Below, piece after piece: positions 4,435-25,807 of a DNA stretch of 64,000 nt. Position 1 is the stretch's first letter; each line of letters starts with the position of its first letter. The position numbers and the translations under genes were made by a program. The notes below the pieces were generated by a model. That model had not been told where the DNA came from. It was given only the letters and a program-made list of their open reading frames with translations, and searched no databases. Source of the stretch: an uncultured Microthrixaceae bacterium (GTDB lineage: Bacteria; Actinomycetota; Acidimicrobiia; Acidimicrobiales; VFJN01); the NCBI GenBank assembly GCA_963795165.1, contig CAWCGT010000002.1, positions 94,565-158,564 on the forward strand, given 5' to 3'.

Positions 4435-5682
4435 CGGTCGTCCTCGTAGTCGAAGGCCAGGCGACCGATGTGCACGGTGTCGCCGGGCGGGCACCGGCCC
4501 GGGCCAGCGCCTTGTCGATGCCGAGGGCCTTGCAGACGGCGGTGGGCCTCGTCCAGGGCCTCGGCGTTGGTGAGGTCGGACAGGGCGACGGCCCGCTGCG
4601 CCTGACGGCCCGACCACGGCCCACGCCCCGTAGTCGTCGCGCTCGATGCGGTAGCCGCTCGGCGACGGGACGGTGCACCACGAAGGCGTCCGGCTCGGGG
4701 AGCTCCGCCCGGCGCCTCGGCACCGCTTCGGCCATCTGGCCGACGAGGGTGCGCAGCCCTGCACCGGTGAGGGCCGACGATGCGCGTGCCCGTCGAACAC
4801 CAGGCCGGGGTCCGCAAGGTCGGCTCGGGATCCCACGACGAGACGGGGACGGTCCAGGAGCTCGGGCTGGTAGTCGACCCAGCTCGCCGGAGGAGGATCC
4901 GCTCCTGCTCGGAGGGTGGGTGCTCGGCCAGCGGCGAGCCAGGTCGAGCAGCAGCACCAGCACGCGTGCCCGCTCGACGTGGCGGAGGAACTGGTGCCCC
5001 AGCCCCGCCCCTCGCTGGCCCCCTCGATGAGACCGGGGAGGTCGGCCACGACGAACTCGGTCTCGTCGTCGAGCCGCACCACGCCGAGGTTCGGCTCGAG
5101 GGTGGTGAAGGGGTAGTCGGCGATCTTGGGCTTGGCGGCCGAGATGGTGGAGATGAGCGTGGACTTCCCGACGCTCGGGAAGCCCACGAGGGCCACGTCG
5201 GCCATCAGCTTGAGCTCCAGTCGCAGCCAGCGCTCCTCGCCGAGCTCGCCCTGCTCGGCGAAGGCCGGGGGCCCGACGCCGGTTGGACAGGAACCGGGCG
5301 TTGCCGCGACCGCCCCGCCCTCCCTCGGCGGCCAGCCAGCGGTCGCCAGGGTGGAGGAGGTCGGCCAGCATCGGTGCCGTCCTGGTCCCGCACCATCGTG
5401 CCCTCGGGCACGGGCACCTCGAGGTCGGTGCCCCCGCGGCCGTGCTTGCGCTTGCCCTGGCCGTGGGTACCGCTGTTGGCAGCTCGGTGGGGGTGGTCGC
5501 GGAAGGCGATCAGGGAGGCCACGTTGCGGTCGACGACGAGCCACACGTCGCCGCCGTCGCCGCCGTCGCCCCCGTCGGGGCCGCCGAAGGGCACGTGGGC
5601 CTCCCGGCGGAAGCTCGACCGAGCCGGCGCCGCCGTCGCCGCCCTTGACGTGGAGACCGCACTCGTCGACGAACTGCGACAC
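4431..5682 (-). CDS. obgE: GTPase ObgE/CgtA (frameshifted)
   Basis: FVDE...[59 protein letters not shown]. Confidence 0.95.
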
Positions 5683-18427: not shown

Positions 18428-20394
18428 GCGCCCACCCCCGCCGGCTTGCGCCGCGAGCAGCGTGACCGGCACCTCGCCGCCACGGTGCGAGGTCCTGGCC
18501 GGTGCCCTGGCTGCCGCCGGCCGGGGGGACGGCCGAGGCCACGACGTGCTCGATGCCGTAGCCGGTGCAGGCGCCGCAGTCGTAGCAGGGCGTCCAGCGG
18601 CAGTCCTCGCAGGCCGAGCTCGTCGAGCGCGTCGCGCCAGTCCTGCCAGAGGAAGTCCTTGTGGAGGCCGGCCGAGAGGTGGTCCCACGGCAGCGCCTCG
18701 TCCTCGGTGCGATGCCGGTGGCAGTACCAGTCCATGTCGAGCCCTGCGGCCTCCATGGCGTCGCTCCCACAGGTCGAGCCGGAAGTGCTCGCTCCACTCC
18801 TGGAAGGTGCCGCCGGCCCGCCAGACGTGCTCGATGACGGCGCCGAGGCGGCGATCGCCCCGGCTGACCAGGCCCTCGACCACGCTGGCCTGCGGGTCGT
18901 GCCACTTGATCTGCACGCCCTTGGCCTTGCTGCGCGGCGTCGCGCAGCAGGTTGACCTTGCGGCGCAGCTCGACCTCGGTGTTCATCCCGAACCACTGGA
19001 ACGGGGTGAACGCCTTGGGCACGAACCCGCCGACGCTGACCGTGACCGTGCCGTTGTGGCCGTGCGCCTTGGCCAGCTCGACGCAGCGGCGGGCCAGCTC
19101 GATGATGCCGAGGGTGTCCTCGTCGGTCTCGGTGGGCAGGCCGGTGAGGAAGTAGAGCTTCACCCGCCGCCAGCCCTGGCTGAAGGCGGAGTCGACCGCC
19201 GCTGTAGAGGTCCTCCTCGGTGATGAGCTTGTTGATGACCTGGCGCATGCGCCAGGTGCCGGCCTCGGGAGCGAAGGTGAGCCCGGTGCGGCGGGCCTTC
19301 TGGATCTGGGCGGCCACGCCGACGGTGAAGGCGTCGACCCGCAGGCTGGGGAGGCTGACCGACACGTTGCCGCAGCCGACCGAGTCGTCCATGGCGTCGG
19401 CGACGACGTCCTCGATGCCGGAGAAGTCGGCCGTCGAGAGGCTGGTGAGGGCGACCTCGTCGTAGCCGGTGCGGCGGAGGCCCTGCTGCACCATCGAGGC
19501 GCACCTGGTCGGCCGGGCGCTCGCGCACCGGCCGGGTGATCATCCCGGCCTGGCAGAAGCGGCAGCCACGGGTGCAGCCCCGGAAGACCTCGACGTTGAG
19601 GCGGTCGTGCACCACCTCGGTGAGCGGCACGAGCTGCTGCTTCGGGTAGGGCCAGTCGGCCAGGTCGGCGATGGTGCGCTTCTCGACCGTCGGCCGGCGC
19701 GGCCGGGTCGATCGGGCACGGTGACCTCGAGGCGCCCGTCGGGGAGGTACCGGGCCTCGTAGAGCGACGGGCACGTAGACGCCCTCGACGCCGGCCAGGG
19801 CCCGGAGCACGTCGATCGCGGTCGGCGCGGCCGCCGGCCTTCCACGCCGCCGACGACCTCGTTGATCTCGCTGACGACCTCCTCGCCGTCGCCCAGCACG
19901 ACGAAGTCGAGGAAGTCGGCCAGCGGCTCGGGGTTGTAGGTGGCGTGCCCGCCCGGCGCCGACCAGCGGGTGCTGCGGCCGTGCGGTCGGCGGCGCGGAC
20001 GCGGCACGCCGGCCAGGTCGATGCAGTTCAGGACGTTCGTGTAGACGAGCTCGGCCGACAGGTTGAAGGCGATCACGTCGAACTCGTCGGCCGAGCGGTG
20101 GGTGTCCACCGAGAACAGCGGGATCGCCTCCCGGCGCAGCACGTCCTCGAGGTCGGTCCACGGGGCGTAGGACCGCTCGGCCAGGGCGTCGGAGCGCTCG
20201 TTGAGGATCTCGTAGAGGATCTGGAGGCCCTGGTTGGGCAGCCCGATCTCGTAGGTGTCCGGGTACACCAGCAGCCACCCGACCCGGTCAGGGGCGGGCG
20301 ACGGGACCTCGGCGCCGAGCTCGCAGCCGATGTAGCGCGCCGGCTTCTGCACCGAGGCCAGGTGCGGCTCGAGGCGAGCCCAGACATCGACCAT
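18424..20394 (-). CDS. TIGR03960-type B12-binding radical SAM protein (frameshifted)
   Basis: VQKPARYIG, YPDTYEIGLPNQGLQILYEILN, FRGCTRGCRFCQAG (CxxxCxxC), DCRWTPCYDCGAC. Confidence 0.92.
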
Positions 20395-20471
20395 GGTGGC
20401 TCCCAGGGTACAAGACCCCCCAGGGCGGCCCCCCATCGCCCCCGGTCACCCCACCCCAGCCCCCTCTCCCA

Positions 20472-20586
20472 CCGAGGTTGGGGGCAAGGGCGGCCGCAGG
20501 GCGAACCACTGTGCCCCCAACCTCGGAGCTGCCCACGGGTTCGGGGCATGGGCGTCCGCAATGCGAACCATCGTGCCCCCGACCTC
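20472..20586. repeat. Two tandem REP-like inverted-repeat units (left pair)
   Basis: CCGAGGTTGGGGGCA(20472-86)-N25-TGCCCCCAACCTCGG(20512-26), perfect 15-bp IR; GGGTTCGGGGCA(20537-48)-N25-TGCCCCCGACCTC(20574-86). Confidence 0.85.
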
Positions 20587-21453
20587 ACAGGGGGTCGCGG
20601 AGGGCCGCCTCGATGGTGCGGCGGCCGATGGCGGCGACCCGCTCGTCGCCGTTGGCGAAGGCGACACCGAGGCAGAGGGCCCAGCCGAGCGCCCGCCGCC
20701 ACGTTGCGTCGTCGACGCCAGCGGCGGCGCGGAGCTCGTCCCGGACCGGAGCGGAGAACAGCATCCAGGCCACCGCCAGGTCGGACGCCGGGTCGCCGGC
20801 GGTGAGATCGCCGAAGTCGATGACGGCCGACAGCCGGCCATCGTCGACGAGGAGGTTGAGGGGGTGGACGTCCCCGTGCACCCACACCGGCGGGCTCGAC
20901 CACCCCGGCGTGTCGACCAGCACCTCCCAGCGGCGACGGATCGCCGACTGGTCGACCGACTGGCCCAGCGCTGTCAGGTCGCGGTCGAAGGCGGGCGCTC
21001 GATCGGCCAGTGGGATGCCCCGAACCGGGTTGCGGGGAGCCAGCGGCGGGGCGGCCTGGTGCAGAGCGGCCAGGAACCCGCCGAGCGCCACGGCTGCCTC
21101 GAGCGGCTCGTCGGGGCGGGCGCGCCTCGGCCGTCTCTCCGGCGAGCCACGGAACGATCGACCACGGCCACGGGAACCCACTTCCGGGCCGGCCCGCTCG
21201 CACCGGCATCGGGATGGGCAGCGGCAGCGGCGGCAGCTCGGGGAGCCACCGCAGCTCGTTCTCGAGCAGGGGGACGCGCCAGCGCCCGACGGGGCAGGCG
21301 AACGACCAGGTCGTCGCCGAGGCGGAAGGTGGCGTTGTCCCAGCCGGTGGCCAGTCGCCGCACCGGCCGACCCGCCAGGTCGGGGTGTTGGGCGGCGACC
21401 AGATCGGAGACCAGCTCCTCGTCGATCGCCACCTCCGCGATCGGCTTCGGCAT
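20585..21453 (-). CDS. Aminoglycoside phosphotransferase-like (APH/choline kinase family) protein (frameshifted)
   Basis: GWDNATFRLGDDLVVRLPRR, WVHGDVHPLNLLV, AVIDFGD, GDPASDLA. Confidence 0.9.
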
Positions 21454-21543
21454 CGCCGCATCTTCGCAGGCCCTGCCACATGCCATCGGCGCGTGCAAGA
21501 CCTTCCATCTCGTTCGGGCACGAGGGCAGGGTCAGCTCGTGCG

Positions 21544-22480
21544 GTGGATCGACCGAGGATCGCGAAGCTGGCCCGGGCGCAGCACGGGGCCTGGACCCGG
21601 CGAGCAGGCGCTGGCCGCTGGAGGCGCCTGCGGTCGCTCATCCAGCGTCGCGTGCGCCGGCGGCAGCTGGCTGCGGCTCGACAGCGGCCGTGTACGCCAG
21701 CCCCGCTGGCACCCCGACGTGGCGGCGCTCGGTGATGGCGTCGGTGCTGGCGGAGCGGCGGGCGGTGGCCTCGCATCGGTGCGGCGGCCGTGCTGCACGG
21801 ACTCGCACGGCTTCCGACCCGGGCGACCCGAGATCACCGTCCCCCCGGGGGCCAACGCACGGGGCGAGCTGGCGCACCGTCCACCGAGGCATCGATGTTC
21901 CCAGGCACAGCCGTCGACGGAATCCCCTGCGTCACCTTGGACCAGGCCTGTTCATCGACCTAGCCGGCGTGGCGTCGTCGAGCACGACTCCGGCGCGCCC
22001 TGGCACGCCGGGCCGACGCACGACCCGCACGTGCTTGGACGGCGTGCGGATCGCTACGCGGAGCTTGGCGCCCGGGGTGGTCGCAACCTCCGGACAGCTC
22101 CGGGCGGTGCTGGAGCGGCTCGGGCCGGAGCCGAGCGTCGACGTGTCGGCGCTCGAGAAGGCGGATGCGACGTGCTGTTCCGCGCCGCCTGGCTGCCCGC
22201 CGGTGCGCTGGGAGGCCCGTTCCCCGGGCGGGAGCCGGTCGCGCAGCGGGTGGACGGGCTCGATCGACGCCTGGCGCGTCGTGCTCGAGGGCGATGGCCG
22301 CGCCTGGCACACCCGGGTCGACGACTTCGAGCGCGACCGCCGACGTGACCAGGCCGCGGCGGCGGCTGGCTTCCTCACCCTGCGGTTCACCTACGTCCAG
22401 ATGCGTCGACGAGCCGGCGACCGGTGCCTCGAGGTCCTCCGCCAGACCGGCGACACCGGCGCCAGCCTCGCGCGCGTCGA
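21544..22480 (+). CDS. AbiEi-antitoxin-like / DUF559 (PD-(D/E)xK-type) protein (frameshifted, ends approximate)
   Basis: IAKLARAQHGAWTR, VYA...TWRRSVMASVLA...VASHR, PEITVP, and VVLEGDGRAWH...FERDRRRDQ...GFLTLRFTY. Confidence 0.75.
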
Positions 22481-22597
22481 GGTTGGGGGCACGAGGGCCG
22501 GCGACCGGTCCGCCACTTGCCCCGCAACGCTCGAGGCCAAGCGGGTGGGTTGGGGGCACCAGAACGCCGCTGACCGGCCGCCGCGCCCCCAACCTCG
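22478..22597. repeat. Two tandem REP-like inverted-repeat units (right pair)
   Basis: CGAGGTTGGGGGCA(22478-91)-N26-TGCCCCGCAACGCTCG (degenerate); GGGTTGGGGGCA(22547-58)-N25-CGCCCCCAACCTCG(22584-97). Confidence 0.85.
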
Positions 22598-22613
22598 ACG
22601 CGGTGCGGGGGGG

Positions 22614-23799
22614 TCAGGAGAAGCGGCGCATGTGGACGTTGAGGACGAGGCCGATGGCGATGAAGGCGGTGAGGGTGCTGGAGCCGCCGTAGCTCATGAA
22701 GGGCAGGGGGATGCCGGTGATCGGCATGATGCCCATCGTCATCCCGACGTTCTCGAACACCTGGAACACGAACATCGACAGGACGCCGACGCAGATGAGG
22801 GTGCCGAGCGGGTCGCGGGCCAGCTGGGCGGTGCGCCAGATCCGCCAGGCGATGATCGACAGCAGGGCCAGCAGGGTGCCGGCCCCGACGAAGCCCAGCT
22901 CCTCCCCCACCGCGGTGAAGATGAAGTCGGTGTGCTGCTCGGGGACGATGTCGAGCCGGGTCTGGGTGCCCTCGAACAGGCCGGTGCCGAGCAGGCCGCC
23001 CGGAGCCGATGGCGGTCTTGGCCTGCTCGAGGTTGTAGGCGGCGCCCCGCTCGGTCGCACTCCTGGTCCTGAGTCTCGAGGAACGACGTGAGCCGGCACT
23101 GCTGGAACTTCTCCAGCATCCCGGAGTTGAGGACCATGCCGACGCCGACGATCCCGACGAGGGTGAGCGCGAGCGATGTGGCGGACCTGGGCGCCGCCGA
23201 TCAGCAGCATCCCCATGCCGACGGCCACGAACACCAGCGTGGTGCCGAGGTCGGGCTGGAGCATGATCAGCGCCATCGGCACGCCGGCCACCGCCAGCAC
23301 GACGACGAGTCGGCGGGCGTCGAGCTCGCTGTTGAAGTGGGCGATCACCGACGCCAGCGTGACGATCACGACGATCTTGGCCAGCTCGGAGGGCTGGAGC
23401 TGGAACGGGCCGAGCTGGAACCAGGCCTGGCTGCCCTTGCGCTCGCTGCCGAGCCCCGTCACCACCATGACCAGCGCGAGCAGGATGCCGCCGTAGGCGA
23501 TCGGCGCCATCTCGCGGTAGCGGCGGTAGTCGATGAGGGCCACCAGCAGCATGACCGCCGGCGCCGATGCCGACGAAGAGCGAGCTGCTTGAGCGAGGAA
23601 GCTGGTGTCGAAGTCCGACGGGTCGCGGCCCCGGGTGGCGCTGAAGATCATGAGGCAGCCCAGGGCCGCCACCGCCGACCACGCTGCCGACCAGCACGAG
23701 GTCGATGTGGCGCCAGGGGGCAGCCGGGTTGCGGGACAGCCGCCCGAGCGCGCCCGGGGCCACCCGGTTGCGGCCGGAGAAGGTGGTGGCGGTGGTCAT
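22614..23799 (-). CDS. rodA: Rod shape-determining protein RodA (SEDS) (frameshifted)
   Basis: QLQPSELAK, LQPDLGT, PEQHTDFIF, GIMPITGIPLPFMSYGGSS. Confidence 0.95.
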
Positions 23800-25807
23800 C
23801 AGTCGCGCACCTCCGGCGTGATGCGGGGCCAGGCTGCCGAGCATCTCGAACTTGCCGCCGTCGGGCGCGGGCGGCAGCGGCGCCGGGTCGGCCAGCACGT
23901 CGAAGAGCCGACGGGCGACCGGTGCGGCCACCGACCCGCCGTAGCCGGACTCCTCGAGCAGCACGGAGATGGCGTACTGCGGGGTCGGTGGCCGGGCCGA
24001 ACGCCCCGAACACGGCGGTGGGCGCCTTGCCGCTCACCTGGGCCGTGCCGGTCTTGGCCGCGATCGGGTAGGTGTCGTTGGGGAAGCCGCTGAAGGCGCC
24101 GACCGCGGTGCCGCCCGCTGGGTGGTGACGCCCACCAGCCCGTCGACGCACGGCCGCGCCACTCAGGGAGCATCTCCACCTTGTTGAGGCCACCGGGCTC
24201 GATGGTGCGCGTGACCTCCTTGGTGACGCCGTCGCGCACCTCCTTCACCACGTGCGGCTCCCAGACGGTGCCCCCGTTGCCGATGGTGGCGTAGCCGGAG
24301 GCCAGCTGGAGCGGGGTGAGCAGCACGTCGCCCTGGCCGATCGACATGTTGACGTTGTTGCCCGTGCGCCACGTGCCGTCCACGCACTCGATCTGCGTCG
24401 CAGAAGGAGCTGGAGCCACGCCGGCGACGGGATGCGCCCCGACTGCTCGCTGGAGAGGTCGATCCCGGTGTCTTCGTCGAAGCCCCACTGCTTCAGCAGG
24501 TCGGCGTAGCGCTCCGGGCCGCCGAGGGCGTCCTGCTCGATCCAGAAGCGAGCGCCGAGGCCGTAGTAGTAGAAGTCGGACGACACCGTGAGGGAGCGAC
24601 GCAGGTCGACGACGCCGTACTGGCGCTTGCTGTCGTTGCGGAAGACGCACGACTCGCCGCTGCAGTCGGGCACCTCGTACTCGCCGTCGTCGAAGACGGT
24701 CGACTGCCGGAGTGATCAGCCCGGCTTGGAGGGCAGAGATGGCGCTGAAGGGCTTGAAGGTGGAGCCGGGGGCGTACTGGCCCTGGATGGCCCAGTTGTT
24801 GAGCGGGGCGTTGCTGCTCTCGTCGGTGAGGTACTTCCACTCAGCGTCGCTGATGCCGTCGACGAACTCCGCCGGGTTGAACGTGGGGTACGACGCCATG
24901 GCGATCACGCCGCCCGCTGCGCGGATCGAGGACGACCGTGGATCCGACCGCTCCCTTGGCAGGCGGCGGTGCAGCCGGTGCACGGCCGGCCCTTGGCGAT
25001 GGTCAGTCCCGATTGGAGGGCCTGCTCGGCCTGGGCCTGCACGTCGATGTCGAGGTTCAGCACCACGTCGTCGCCGGCGATCGGACGGGTCTCCTCCACC
25101 ACCCGGATGGGGTTGTTCTCGGCGTCGACCTCGATGTGACCGCGCGCCGGGCGTGCCGCGCAGATCGTCCTCGTAGATCTTCTCCACGCCCGTACTTCCC
25201 GATCTCGTCGTTCAGGGTGTACGGCTTCGTCGACTCGGCCTTGGTCTCCGAACTCCTCGTCGATGATCTGGCCCGTGTACCCAATGACGTGCGCGGCCAG
25301 CTGCCCGTAGGGGTAGCGCCGCACGGCCACCCGCTCGGCCGACACGCCCGGCAGCTCGGCGCCGTGCTCGTCGATCCAGATCTTGAGCTCCTCGGGCACG
25401 TCGCCGGCCACCGGGACGGGCACGTACGGGCTGTAGCGCTGGTTGGCCAGGTCGGCCTCGAGCTGCTCGACCGTCTTCGGGGTTCCAGATCTCGCCAACC
25501 CCTCGGCCACCTTGGTGAGGACCGAGGTCCGCTCGTTCCCCTCGAGCTCATCGATGATCGTGCGGTCGATGGTGATCTGGACCGAGATGCGGTTGTCGAC
25601 CAGCACCGTGCCGTTGCGGTCCAAGATTCGGCCTCGCGGGGCCTCGACGGGGACCACCCGGATGCGGTTGGCCTGGGCCTGCCACCTGGTACTGGTCGGA
25701 GGCCATGACCTGGAGGTACCAGAGCCGGGCAGAAGAGGGCGGCGAAGAGGGCGAAGACCACGATGCCCAGGACCGACATGCGCACGCCGCGGGCTCTCGG
25801 CGTTCAT
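23799..25807 (-). CDS. mrdA: Penicillin-binding protein 2 (frameshifted)
   Basis: APRGRILDRNG, RRYPYG, YAPGSTFKP (SxxK), SSDFYYY, IGQGDVLLTPLQLA, AKTGTAQ. Confidence 0.93.

Follow-up and report, generated by a model that had tools for sequence, protein, structure and literature searches.

REP-type repeats (repetitive extragenic palindromes) rank with the most frequent non-coding elements found in bacterial genomes and, to our knowledge, the RAYT tyrosine transposase is the only partner enzyme that has been described for them. The present analysis concerns a locus that can be set beside such pairings, at positions 20472-22597 of a 64,000-nucleotide stretch of DNA (the window, to which coordinates without a contig name refer) in G000, the genome under study, which belongs to the Acidimicrobiales and has 3.55 Mb and 72% G+C. 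The locus contains four units, H1 to H4, of a 47-nt palindrome termed F1 (pattern GAGGTTGGGGGCA-N25-TGCCCCCAACCTC), which flank an APH-family kinase gene and a gene encoding an AbiEi-type winged helix-turn-helix (wHTH) domain followed by a DUF559 nuclease, between a TIGR03960-family gene and rodA. With moderate confidence, comparison of the sequences favours F1 as a lineage-specific dispersed palindromic repeat and the AbiEi-wHTH/DUF559 gene as its dedicated partner, placed among its repeats in the manner of a RAYT gene. The published background, in the parts of the sources that were available, comprises the association of REP and REPIN repeats with RAYT (Bertels & Rainey 2011, PMC3116915, PMC3337134) and the statement that some REP super-families lack a dedicated transposase (Di Nocera 2013, PMC3733652).

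F1 is established as a repeat family by its distribution and by its structure. G000 has 18 copies, distributed over 10 loci, and the F1 model matches in 23 of the 30 genomes of the genus. A scan for exact arms, with one genome taken per species, returned 81 F1 stretches, labelled as Acidimicrobiales or Microthrixaceae metagenome-assembled genomes or as unclassified Actinomycetota, with the sole exception of one Thermoleophilaceae-labelled contig, and public Acidimicrobiales contigs yielded 85 non-redundant F1 arrays. Conservation of the 11-nt arms is 90% or more over 147 copies drawn from many genomes; the 25 nt within them vary from genome to genome but always fold. Each of the seven pairs of the inner stem (7/7) varies on both sides, pairing is kept in 77% of cells, and the covariation score is 0.245 compared with 0.115 after shuffling (0 of 500 shuffles reached the observed value) and 0.04-0.08 when the partners were slid. 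The unit is also chiral, with a T-G-G / T-G-G bubble beside the arms (columns 12-14/34-36), and positions 5/43 are without a standard pair in 90 of the 147 copies, the consensus being a G facing a G. These fixed-position mismatches give every F1 copy a handedness, and a Vsr-like nuclease would be expected to sense mismatches of this kind.

Of the 47 adjacent pairs of F1 units that could be oriented, 42 are direct repeats, and a period of 61 nt applies to 38 of 59 pairs. Arrays range from one to five units, those with two copies accounting for 39 of 91. A called stop codon precedes 33 of the 85 non-redundant arrays by no more than 30 nt and 45 of them by no more than 60 nt, and among the 37 arrays that could be classified on both sides, 23 lie between tandem, 10 between convergent and four between divergent genes. 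The G-rich strand of the hairpin coincides with the sense strand of the upstream gene about as often (29 cases) as it opposes it (31 cases), and no preference is evident. The 116 open reading frames (ORFs) that flank F1 arrays are housekeeping or metabolic, with no transposase and no integrase among them.

At the locus itself, a first-pass annotation of the window had described four arm-spacer-arm units, two on each side, and all four are present where it had placed them; the resemblance of the two left spacers, the contribution of an arm to the kinase stop codon and the extension of the DUF559-like ORF into the right pair were likewise borne out. H1 (20474-20526) has 13-bp arms and a 25-nt core, and its arms pair perfectly over 15 bp if two flanking bases are added; folded as DNA it reaches -23.8 kcal/mol (z -5.6 against shuffles). 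H2 (20536-20588) is a direct tandem copy of H1 at an offset of 62 nt, with two mismatches in its arms and 84% identity to H1 over 49 nt, and the last two bases of its right arm overlap the kinase stop codon (TCA on the + strand, 20585-20587). On the other side, the nuclease frame as assembled has no stop before H3 and is open through both H3 and H4. The right arm of H3 (22479-22531; E 0.0045-0.0086) is either degenerate or consensus with two inserted bases, and H4 (22546-22598), 16 nt from the rodA stop codon, is nearly perfect, its right arm beginning with C instead of T. H1, H2 and H4 were found as matches to the covariance model, and none of the four units is assigned to a strand. The strict F1 pattern matched H1 on both strands and H4 on one, three matches in all, where 100 shuffles gave an expectation of 0.00. 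As single strands, only H1 among the four folds far better than shuffled sequence, the corresponding z-scores being about 0 for H2, -2.2 for H3 and, depending on the strand, -1.4 or -2.4 for H4. A search of Rfam returned nothing relevant in window positions 19000-24000 at E values up to 1.

The nuclease gene (21550-22480, + strand), which was aligned with its orthologues, has several frame breaks as assembled. The N-terminal 160 amino acids match the PADLOC AbiEi model at 4.4e-22 and, weakly, Pfam AbiEi_4, and the C-terminal 100 residues match DUF559. The PF04480 match in G000 (22272-22436) reaches 18.7 bits in this error-ridden assembly, under the cut-off of 20.6, and two of five intact orthologues stand above it at 26.6 and 27.0 bits. 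A profile built from 18 paralogues matched PDB 3HRL at 1.8e-9, 3R3P at 0.006 and Vsr at 0.2-0.4. Across the clades represented by these 18 sequences, the positions of the motif D..ExD..H..D..R are invariant or at least 90% conserved, and the alignment suggests that the nuclease is active. G000 carries five DUF559 genes in all.

The repeat and the gene of this clade (the F1-clade gene) occur together across lineages. Orthologues lie between TIGR03960 and rodA with F1 hairpins in G003, G008, G010, G001, G009, G017, G019, G011, G018 and G029, and F1 hairpins are thereby present at the locus in all 11 genomes that have the gene (G000 and these ten). The gene is directly bracketed by F1 in G017, G003, G001, G008, G010, G009 and G029. 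The last of these belongs to another family of the order, and two overlapping contigs give the arrangement TIGR03960, one hairpin, the gene, two hairpins and rodA. When the F1 model was run over 121 genomes from 103 genera of the order, it matched only in the genera of G000 and G029; with the G008 protein as query, G029 was also the only match outside the genus at more than 50% identity, the next best being at 35-40%. The F1-clade gene is single-copy and vertically inherited, and it stands among F1 copies at a fixed site. Within the genus, model matches were counted on both strands and the values are lower bounds: the 10 genomes with the gene have at least 86, 66, 58, 48, 35, 34, 31, 24, 17 and 8, and the 13 without it at least 33, 19, 12, 10, 9, 8, 7, 5, 2, 0, 0, 0 and 0, with medians of at least about 32 and at least 7, respectively.

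The other DUF559 paralogues are associated with hairpins of different families. No F1 copy lies near any of the other four PF04480 paralogues in G000 (0/4, the nearest at 30 kb) or the six in G017 (0/6, the nearest at 16 kb). This result at first led to rejection of a partnership between repeat and DUF559 genes, and a family-blind look at every paralogue reversed that decision: because other paralogues carry other repeat families, proximity to F1 is the wrong test of partnership. The enrichment of the repeat beside DUF559 paralogues that the first-pass annotation anticipated thus fails for F1 itself, but paralogues elsewhere are bracketed by families of their own. At least three further dispersed palindrome families are present in G000, namely F2, of the ATCTGTGGACG type (21 loci, for example G000:C1:3093145-3093201), F3, a 94-nt compound element (16 loci, for example 257522-257615 of the same contig), and F4, of the CTTGTGGTGATTCC type (26 copies, often in doublets about 72 nt apart, for example 164712-164763). 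Paralogue P3 of this genome lies between two F3 copies and P4 between two F2 copies, and P2 touches one F4 copy. As a genome-wide control, 2504 perfect-arm hairpins in G000 gave four loci with a similar pair 0.5-2.1 kb apart, and two of the four enclose DUF559 genes, the others enclosing an RTX-repeat gene and a stretch without a Pfam match.

Beyond G000, the relatives G017, G008 and G010 contributed 16 paralogues, of which eight have hairpins of a single perfect-arm family on either side, at about 10-70 nt from the gene, and the remaining eight have a hairpin on one side only. Brackets on both sides were also found for 3/3 paralogues in G116, G034 and G087, which represent other families of the order, and for 2/5 in G029, giving 13 of the 24 paralogues checked. 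Two of the G017 paralogue families are themselves dispersed, at about 9 and about 20 loci. Moreover, in a protein tree of the 24 paralogues, clades with 95-100% support correspond to hairpin families, in agreement with the earlier expectation that each clade would have its own repeat type, and an F3-type element surrounds both P3 of G000 and its G008 orthologue.

The closest known system is REP/RAYT, from which the F1 system departs in its enzyme and in lacking inverted doublets, agreeing with it in the remaining traits. Like REPs, F1 units are short, GC-rich extragenic palindromes present at tens of loci, mostly after genes, and a single-copy, vertically inherited partner gene lies between repeats of its own family, with paralogues matched to different families. 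In contrast, the F1 partner is a wHTH protein with a Vsr-like PD-(D/E)xK nuclease and not a Y1/HUH enzyme, the repeats form direct tandem arrays with a 61-nt period instead of the inverted doublets of REPINs, and copy numbers are low, from about 10 to about 40. Of the mobile REPIN-like system that the first-pass annotation had proposed, the REP/RAYT-like pairing of gene and repeat is supported; mobility and REPIN structure are not, no movement having been seen and most doublets being direct. Binding, nicking and cargo capture, which it also raised, are putative activities. A Y1 transposase (PF01797) has no match in G000 and was found in two of the 30 genomes of the genus, G017 and G008, with no F1 copy within the 4-7.5 kb fetched around either. 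The canonical RAYT of G017 is a 292-aa Y1 gene, matching the NCBIfam model for REP-associated tyrosine transposases below its cut-off, which has on each side a copy of a perfect 29-nt palindrome, the two being inverted relative to each other (L021:3736-3766 and 4607-4637, corresponding to G017:C4:856736 and 857607). This palindrome occurs 62 times in G017 and is absent from G000, G008 and G015. The opposite orientation of the two G017 REPs is seen in their central base (A versus T), whereas the copies on either side of the F1-clade gene appear, by our own reading of the strands, to have the same chirality. A RAYT was therefore rejected as the partner of F1, G000 being without a Y1 gene and the RAYT of G017 being flanked by a different REP.

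Several other systems share features with the locus. Integrons are marked by an adjacent integrase, a variable cassette order and attC sites of the form R''-L''...L'-R'. An integron-like cassette array was rejected, since no integrase occurs among the 116 flanking ORFs and the gene order of the islet at the junction is constant; in addition, the F1 arm order GTT...AAC is the reverse of that in attC. Mismatches of the T.G and G.G kind are the lesion type that Vsr recognises. F1 keeps both, and the C-terminal half of the partner protein resembles Vsr in its profile matches and in a motif of acidic residues and histidine, but there is neither the intron or intein context of a homing endonuclease nor a methyltransferase partner; mismatch recognition by the DUF559 nuclease is speculation. 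Vsr and Vsr-like homing endonucleases such as I-Bth0305I are grouped with DUF559 in the available part of one classification (Steczkiewicz 2012, PMC3424549). The likeness to the AbiE type IV toxin-antitoxin system lies in the N-terminal winged-helix domain, which matches the AbiEi antitoxin, and the difference lies in the C-terminal half, which is a DUF559 nuclease, and in the absence of an adjacent AbiEii, as judged from the identities of neighbours and not from a search with an AbiEii model. Neighbours at all loci read were the APH gene, the DUF2786 gene, rodA, TIGR03960 or hairpins, in keeping with the earlier remark that no cognate toxin gene is adjacent. A lineage-restricted palindrome at gene ends has been described in mycobacteria as TRIT ('Tuberculosis Rho-independent terminator'; Gardner 2011, PMC3152330), and is now read as an RNase III substrate (Cell Rep 2026; PMC3152330, PMC13714241). 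From what the available parts of these papers give, TRIT resembles F1 as an actinobacterial, conserved and bidirectional palindrome of about 50 nt without a U-tract, positioned at stop codons or across them; it differs in that 147 copies and no partner gene are given, whereas F1 also occurs at 5' ends, in tandem, and brackets a specific gene. In the accessible portion of the literature, no description was found that links DUF559 to such repeats.

We infer from these comparisons that the protein would recognise and cut its own hairpin and thereby maintain or spread the repeat family. The N-terminal winged-helix domain may recognise the conserved 11-13-bp arms of F1, and the C-terminal Vsr-like nuclease would nick the hairpin in its folded or cruciform state, perhaps at the G.T/G.G mismatches that F1 conserves, after which repair or replication could copy or maintain the repeats. 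Tandem arrays with a 61-nt period may arise by slippage, and the kinase gene and other genes of the islet would be neighbours in a site that loses genes repeatedly. A wider proposal, that a second, RAYT-independent class of REP-type repeats has wHTH-DUF559 nucleases as its dedicated enzymes, with each paralogue recognising and processing its own folded palindrome and the arrays also driving local gene loss and inversion, is tentative and, taken as a whole, rather doubtful; its last element draws on a 450-bp gene of G000 that has an F1 array at each border and lies in the opposite orientation to that in 26 relatives. A very common actinobacterial protein of unknown function (DUF559/AbiEi-like) shows genomic signs of being a repeat partner. 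Such proteins would gain a testable function, with a defined pair of protein and DNA for binding and nicking assays, and gene-loss hotspots beside essential operons may find an explanation. 'Orphan' palindromic families would, if the proposal is true, gain a candidate partner, for example those REP super-families that are stated, in the part of the source available, to be without a dedicated transposase (PMC3733652).

A number of observations weigh against a dedicated partnership between repeat and nuclease. No transposition of either hairpin or gene was observed in the genomes compared. The hairpin at paralogue P1 of G000 has no other copy in that genome, and 11 of the 24 paralogues have a perfect-arm hairpin on one side or none. 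Brackets are not exclusive to DUF559 genes, as F1 surrounds a polyketide-cyclase-like gene and an F4 pair surrounds the RTX-repeat gene. Orthologues share flanking DNA by descent, and co-inheritance could account for part of the agreement between clades and families. Paralogues did not stand out from random sites in a cruder statistic of flank similarity (null median 29 and 99th percentile 54, exceeded by 9 of 29 paralogues and 3 of 10 orthologues), which was replaced by the genome-wide count of hairpin pairs. The F1 count is higher with the gene in all five sister contrasts (5/5) read by hand from the flank tree, but related genomes are not independent of one another, and five such contrasts make a small sample. 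In addition, F1 stays in genomes without the gene, with at least 33 matches in G013 and at least 19 in G043, and an F1-clade orthologue was found nowhere in either; because these genomes keep many copies, any dependence of F1 on the gene is not immediate.

Persistence of the repeats in G013 and G043 is also what would be expected if the nuclease gene were a selfish homing-type cassette, which cuts its cognate hairpin, is copied into the linker of a tandem doublet and never spreads the repeats. Doublets are common and would provide ready landing sites, the profile matches the Vsr-like homing endonuclease 3R3P, and paralogue-specific families would fit target specificity equally well. Nevertheless, this account is unlikely, given that the F1-clade gene is found at a single site, shared by two families of the order, and agrees with the flank tree, that each clade is single-copy in the genomes examined, with no second insertion site seen for any clade, and that the copy number of the repeat drops where the gene has been lost, which is not expected from a pure parasite of repeats. 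A regulatory account, in which the AbiEi-type winged-helix domain represses its own gene through the flanking palindromes, copies elsewhere in the genome being decoys or the sites of a regulon, is very unlikely. AbiEi antitoxins are autorepressors that bind inverted repeats, and both the N-terminal match to AbiEi models and the presence of a hairpin upstream of most paralogues would fit; however, copies also lie downstream of the gene and, at many loci, immediately behind the stop codons of unrelated genes or between convergent genes, tandem arrays reach five units, and covariation keeps the folded inner stem and not a duplex sequence. The conserved nuclease domain would, moreover, be superfluous for repression.

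The absence of any functional link has also to be weighed, with F1 and its like as ordinary REP- or TRIT-like gene-end elements, involved in RNA 3'-end processing, stabilisation or termination, that gather, like accessory DUF559 genes, in variable regions under little constraint. The many arrays shortly after stop codons, the housekeeping neighbours, the character of the junction as a hotspot with other hairpin types too (G015, G042) and the brackets around non-DUF559 genes all accord with this, as does the mycobacterial precedent of TRIT in the available parts of its description (PMC3152330, PMC13714241). It leaves unexplained, however, why the same family is found on both sides of a gene and why families differ by paralogue and follow the protein clades, or why F1 and the F1-clade gene co-occur in only two of 103 genera, the two with F1. 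Hairpins at 5' ends between divergent genes (G003, G008, G010), and a chirality without sense-strand preference, also count against it, and the absence of a link is judged improbable. The dedicated partnership of F1 with the AbiEi-wHTH/DUF559 gene is the preferred reading.

The junction between TIGR03960 and rodA is variable within the genus. As the first-pass annotation had foreseen, an empty site exists in relatives, namely in eight of the 22 with both flanks on one contig (G015, G042, G043, G023, G024, G016, G021 and G004), or 7/21 if the unpublished G004 is left out. Some of these 'empty' junctions hold other hairpins: that of G015 (L010) has a doublet of a different palindrome, of the CAGCCTGTGTCG type, and that of G042 (L011) a diverged F1-like unit. 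F1 arm remnants are present at the junctions of G043 and G024. A non-empty junction has up to four genes in a constant order, comprising an ABC-transporter fusion (ATPase and ABC-2 permease; G006, G007 and G018), a DUF2786/DUF7168 gene (G010, G001, G011, G017, G018 and G007), the APH kinase gene and the AbiEi/DUF559 gene (islet genes at, for example, L024:956-3130, L023:2211-4529 and L076:466-1473). Remnants of islet genes were seen in G012, G007 and G045. The order is collinear across genomes and no movement of a cassette was seen. On a tree of the flanking genes the junction states are interspersed, with the three-gene form on both sides of the midpoint root, and they fit vertical descent with repeated loss.

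The kinase and nuclease genes had been taken to form a two-gene cassette, a reading that was not sustained, as the two come and go independently. G013, G022 and G041 have the kinase gene and lack the nuclease gene (G012 has a remnant of the former only), and G009, G011, G017, G018, G019 and G029 have the nuclease gene and lack the kinase gene. Where both are present, hairpins usually lie between them (four each in G003 and G008, two in G010 and one in G001). Because each gene occurs alone and hairpins usually separate them, they do not constitute a single cassette, and the kinase gene is a neighbour outside the repeat-partner unit. In G000 the kinase gene (20585-21508, - strand) was delimited from a frame plot and stop-to-stop ORFs, and has several frame breaks as assembled. 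Its intact orthologues match Pfam APH at 5.7e-38; the score against the APH(3') resistance model is far too low (27 versus 205 bits).

The conserved flanks of the variable site are the 5' part of the TIGR03960-family radical SAM gene on the left (ORF at 19540-20436, - strand) and rodA, of the FtsW/RodA/SpoVE family, on the right (ORF at 22614-23795, - strand). The former is identified through its orthologue at L102:1634-3046 (540.8 bits, cut-off 462.3) and the latter through orthologues in L077 and L078 that match PF01098, and the DNA of the two flanks is 81-93% identical to 21 relatives and 78-93% identical to 22 relatives, respectively. Both genes bear on the quality of the assembly, which has about one inserted base per 100 nt, conserved genes included. 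The first 796 nt of TIGR03960 (19600-20395) have eight extra bases compared with every relative, and rodA as assembled shifts frame and back. The completeness score of G000 is 58.7%, yet the genome consists of just two contigs, and inserted bases are probably the explanation for the low score. The frameshifts in the kinase and nuclease genes and the flaws in H2 and H3 may likewise be assembly noise and are not read as signs of pseudogenes or as other biology, because the conserved flanking genes carry inserted bases at equal density.

Other genes in G000 are bounded by similar repeats. An F1 doublet and an F1 quadruplet bracket a gene for a 149-aa polyketide-cyclase/SRPBCC-like protein (G000:C1:3094081-3094888; L106:1575-2397). 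This gene (450 bp) is inverted relative to both of its flanks when compared with all 26 relatives that show it, and the closest relative, G019, has no F1 copy there; the arrangement in G000 is either a repeat-bounded inversion or an assembly artefact. An F4 pair, each copy with a second small hairpin alongside, brackets the RTX calcium-binding-repeat gene of about 0.9 kb (G000:C1:1869722-1870757; L128). At G000:C1:10372-12141 (L127), two similar hairpins of 51-53 nt lie 1.67 kb apart and enclose ORFs without a Pfam match.

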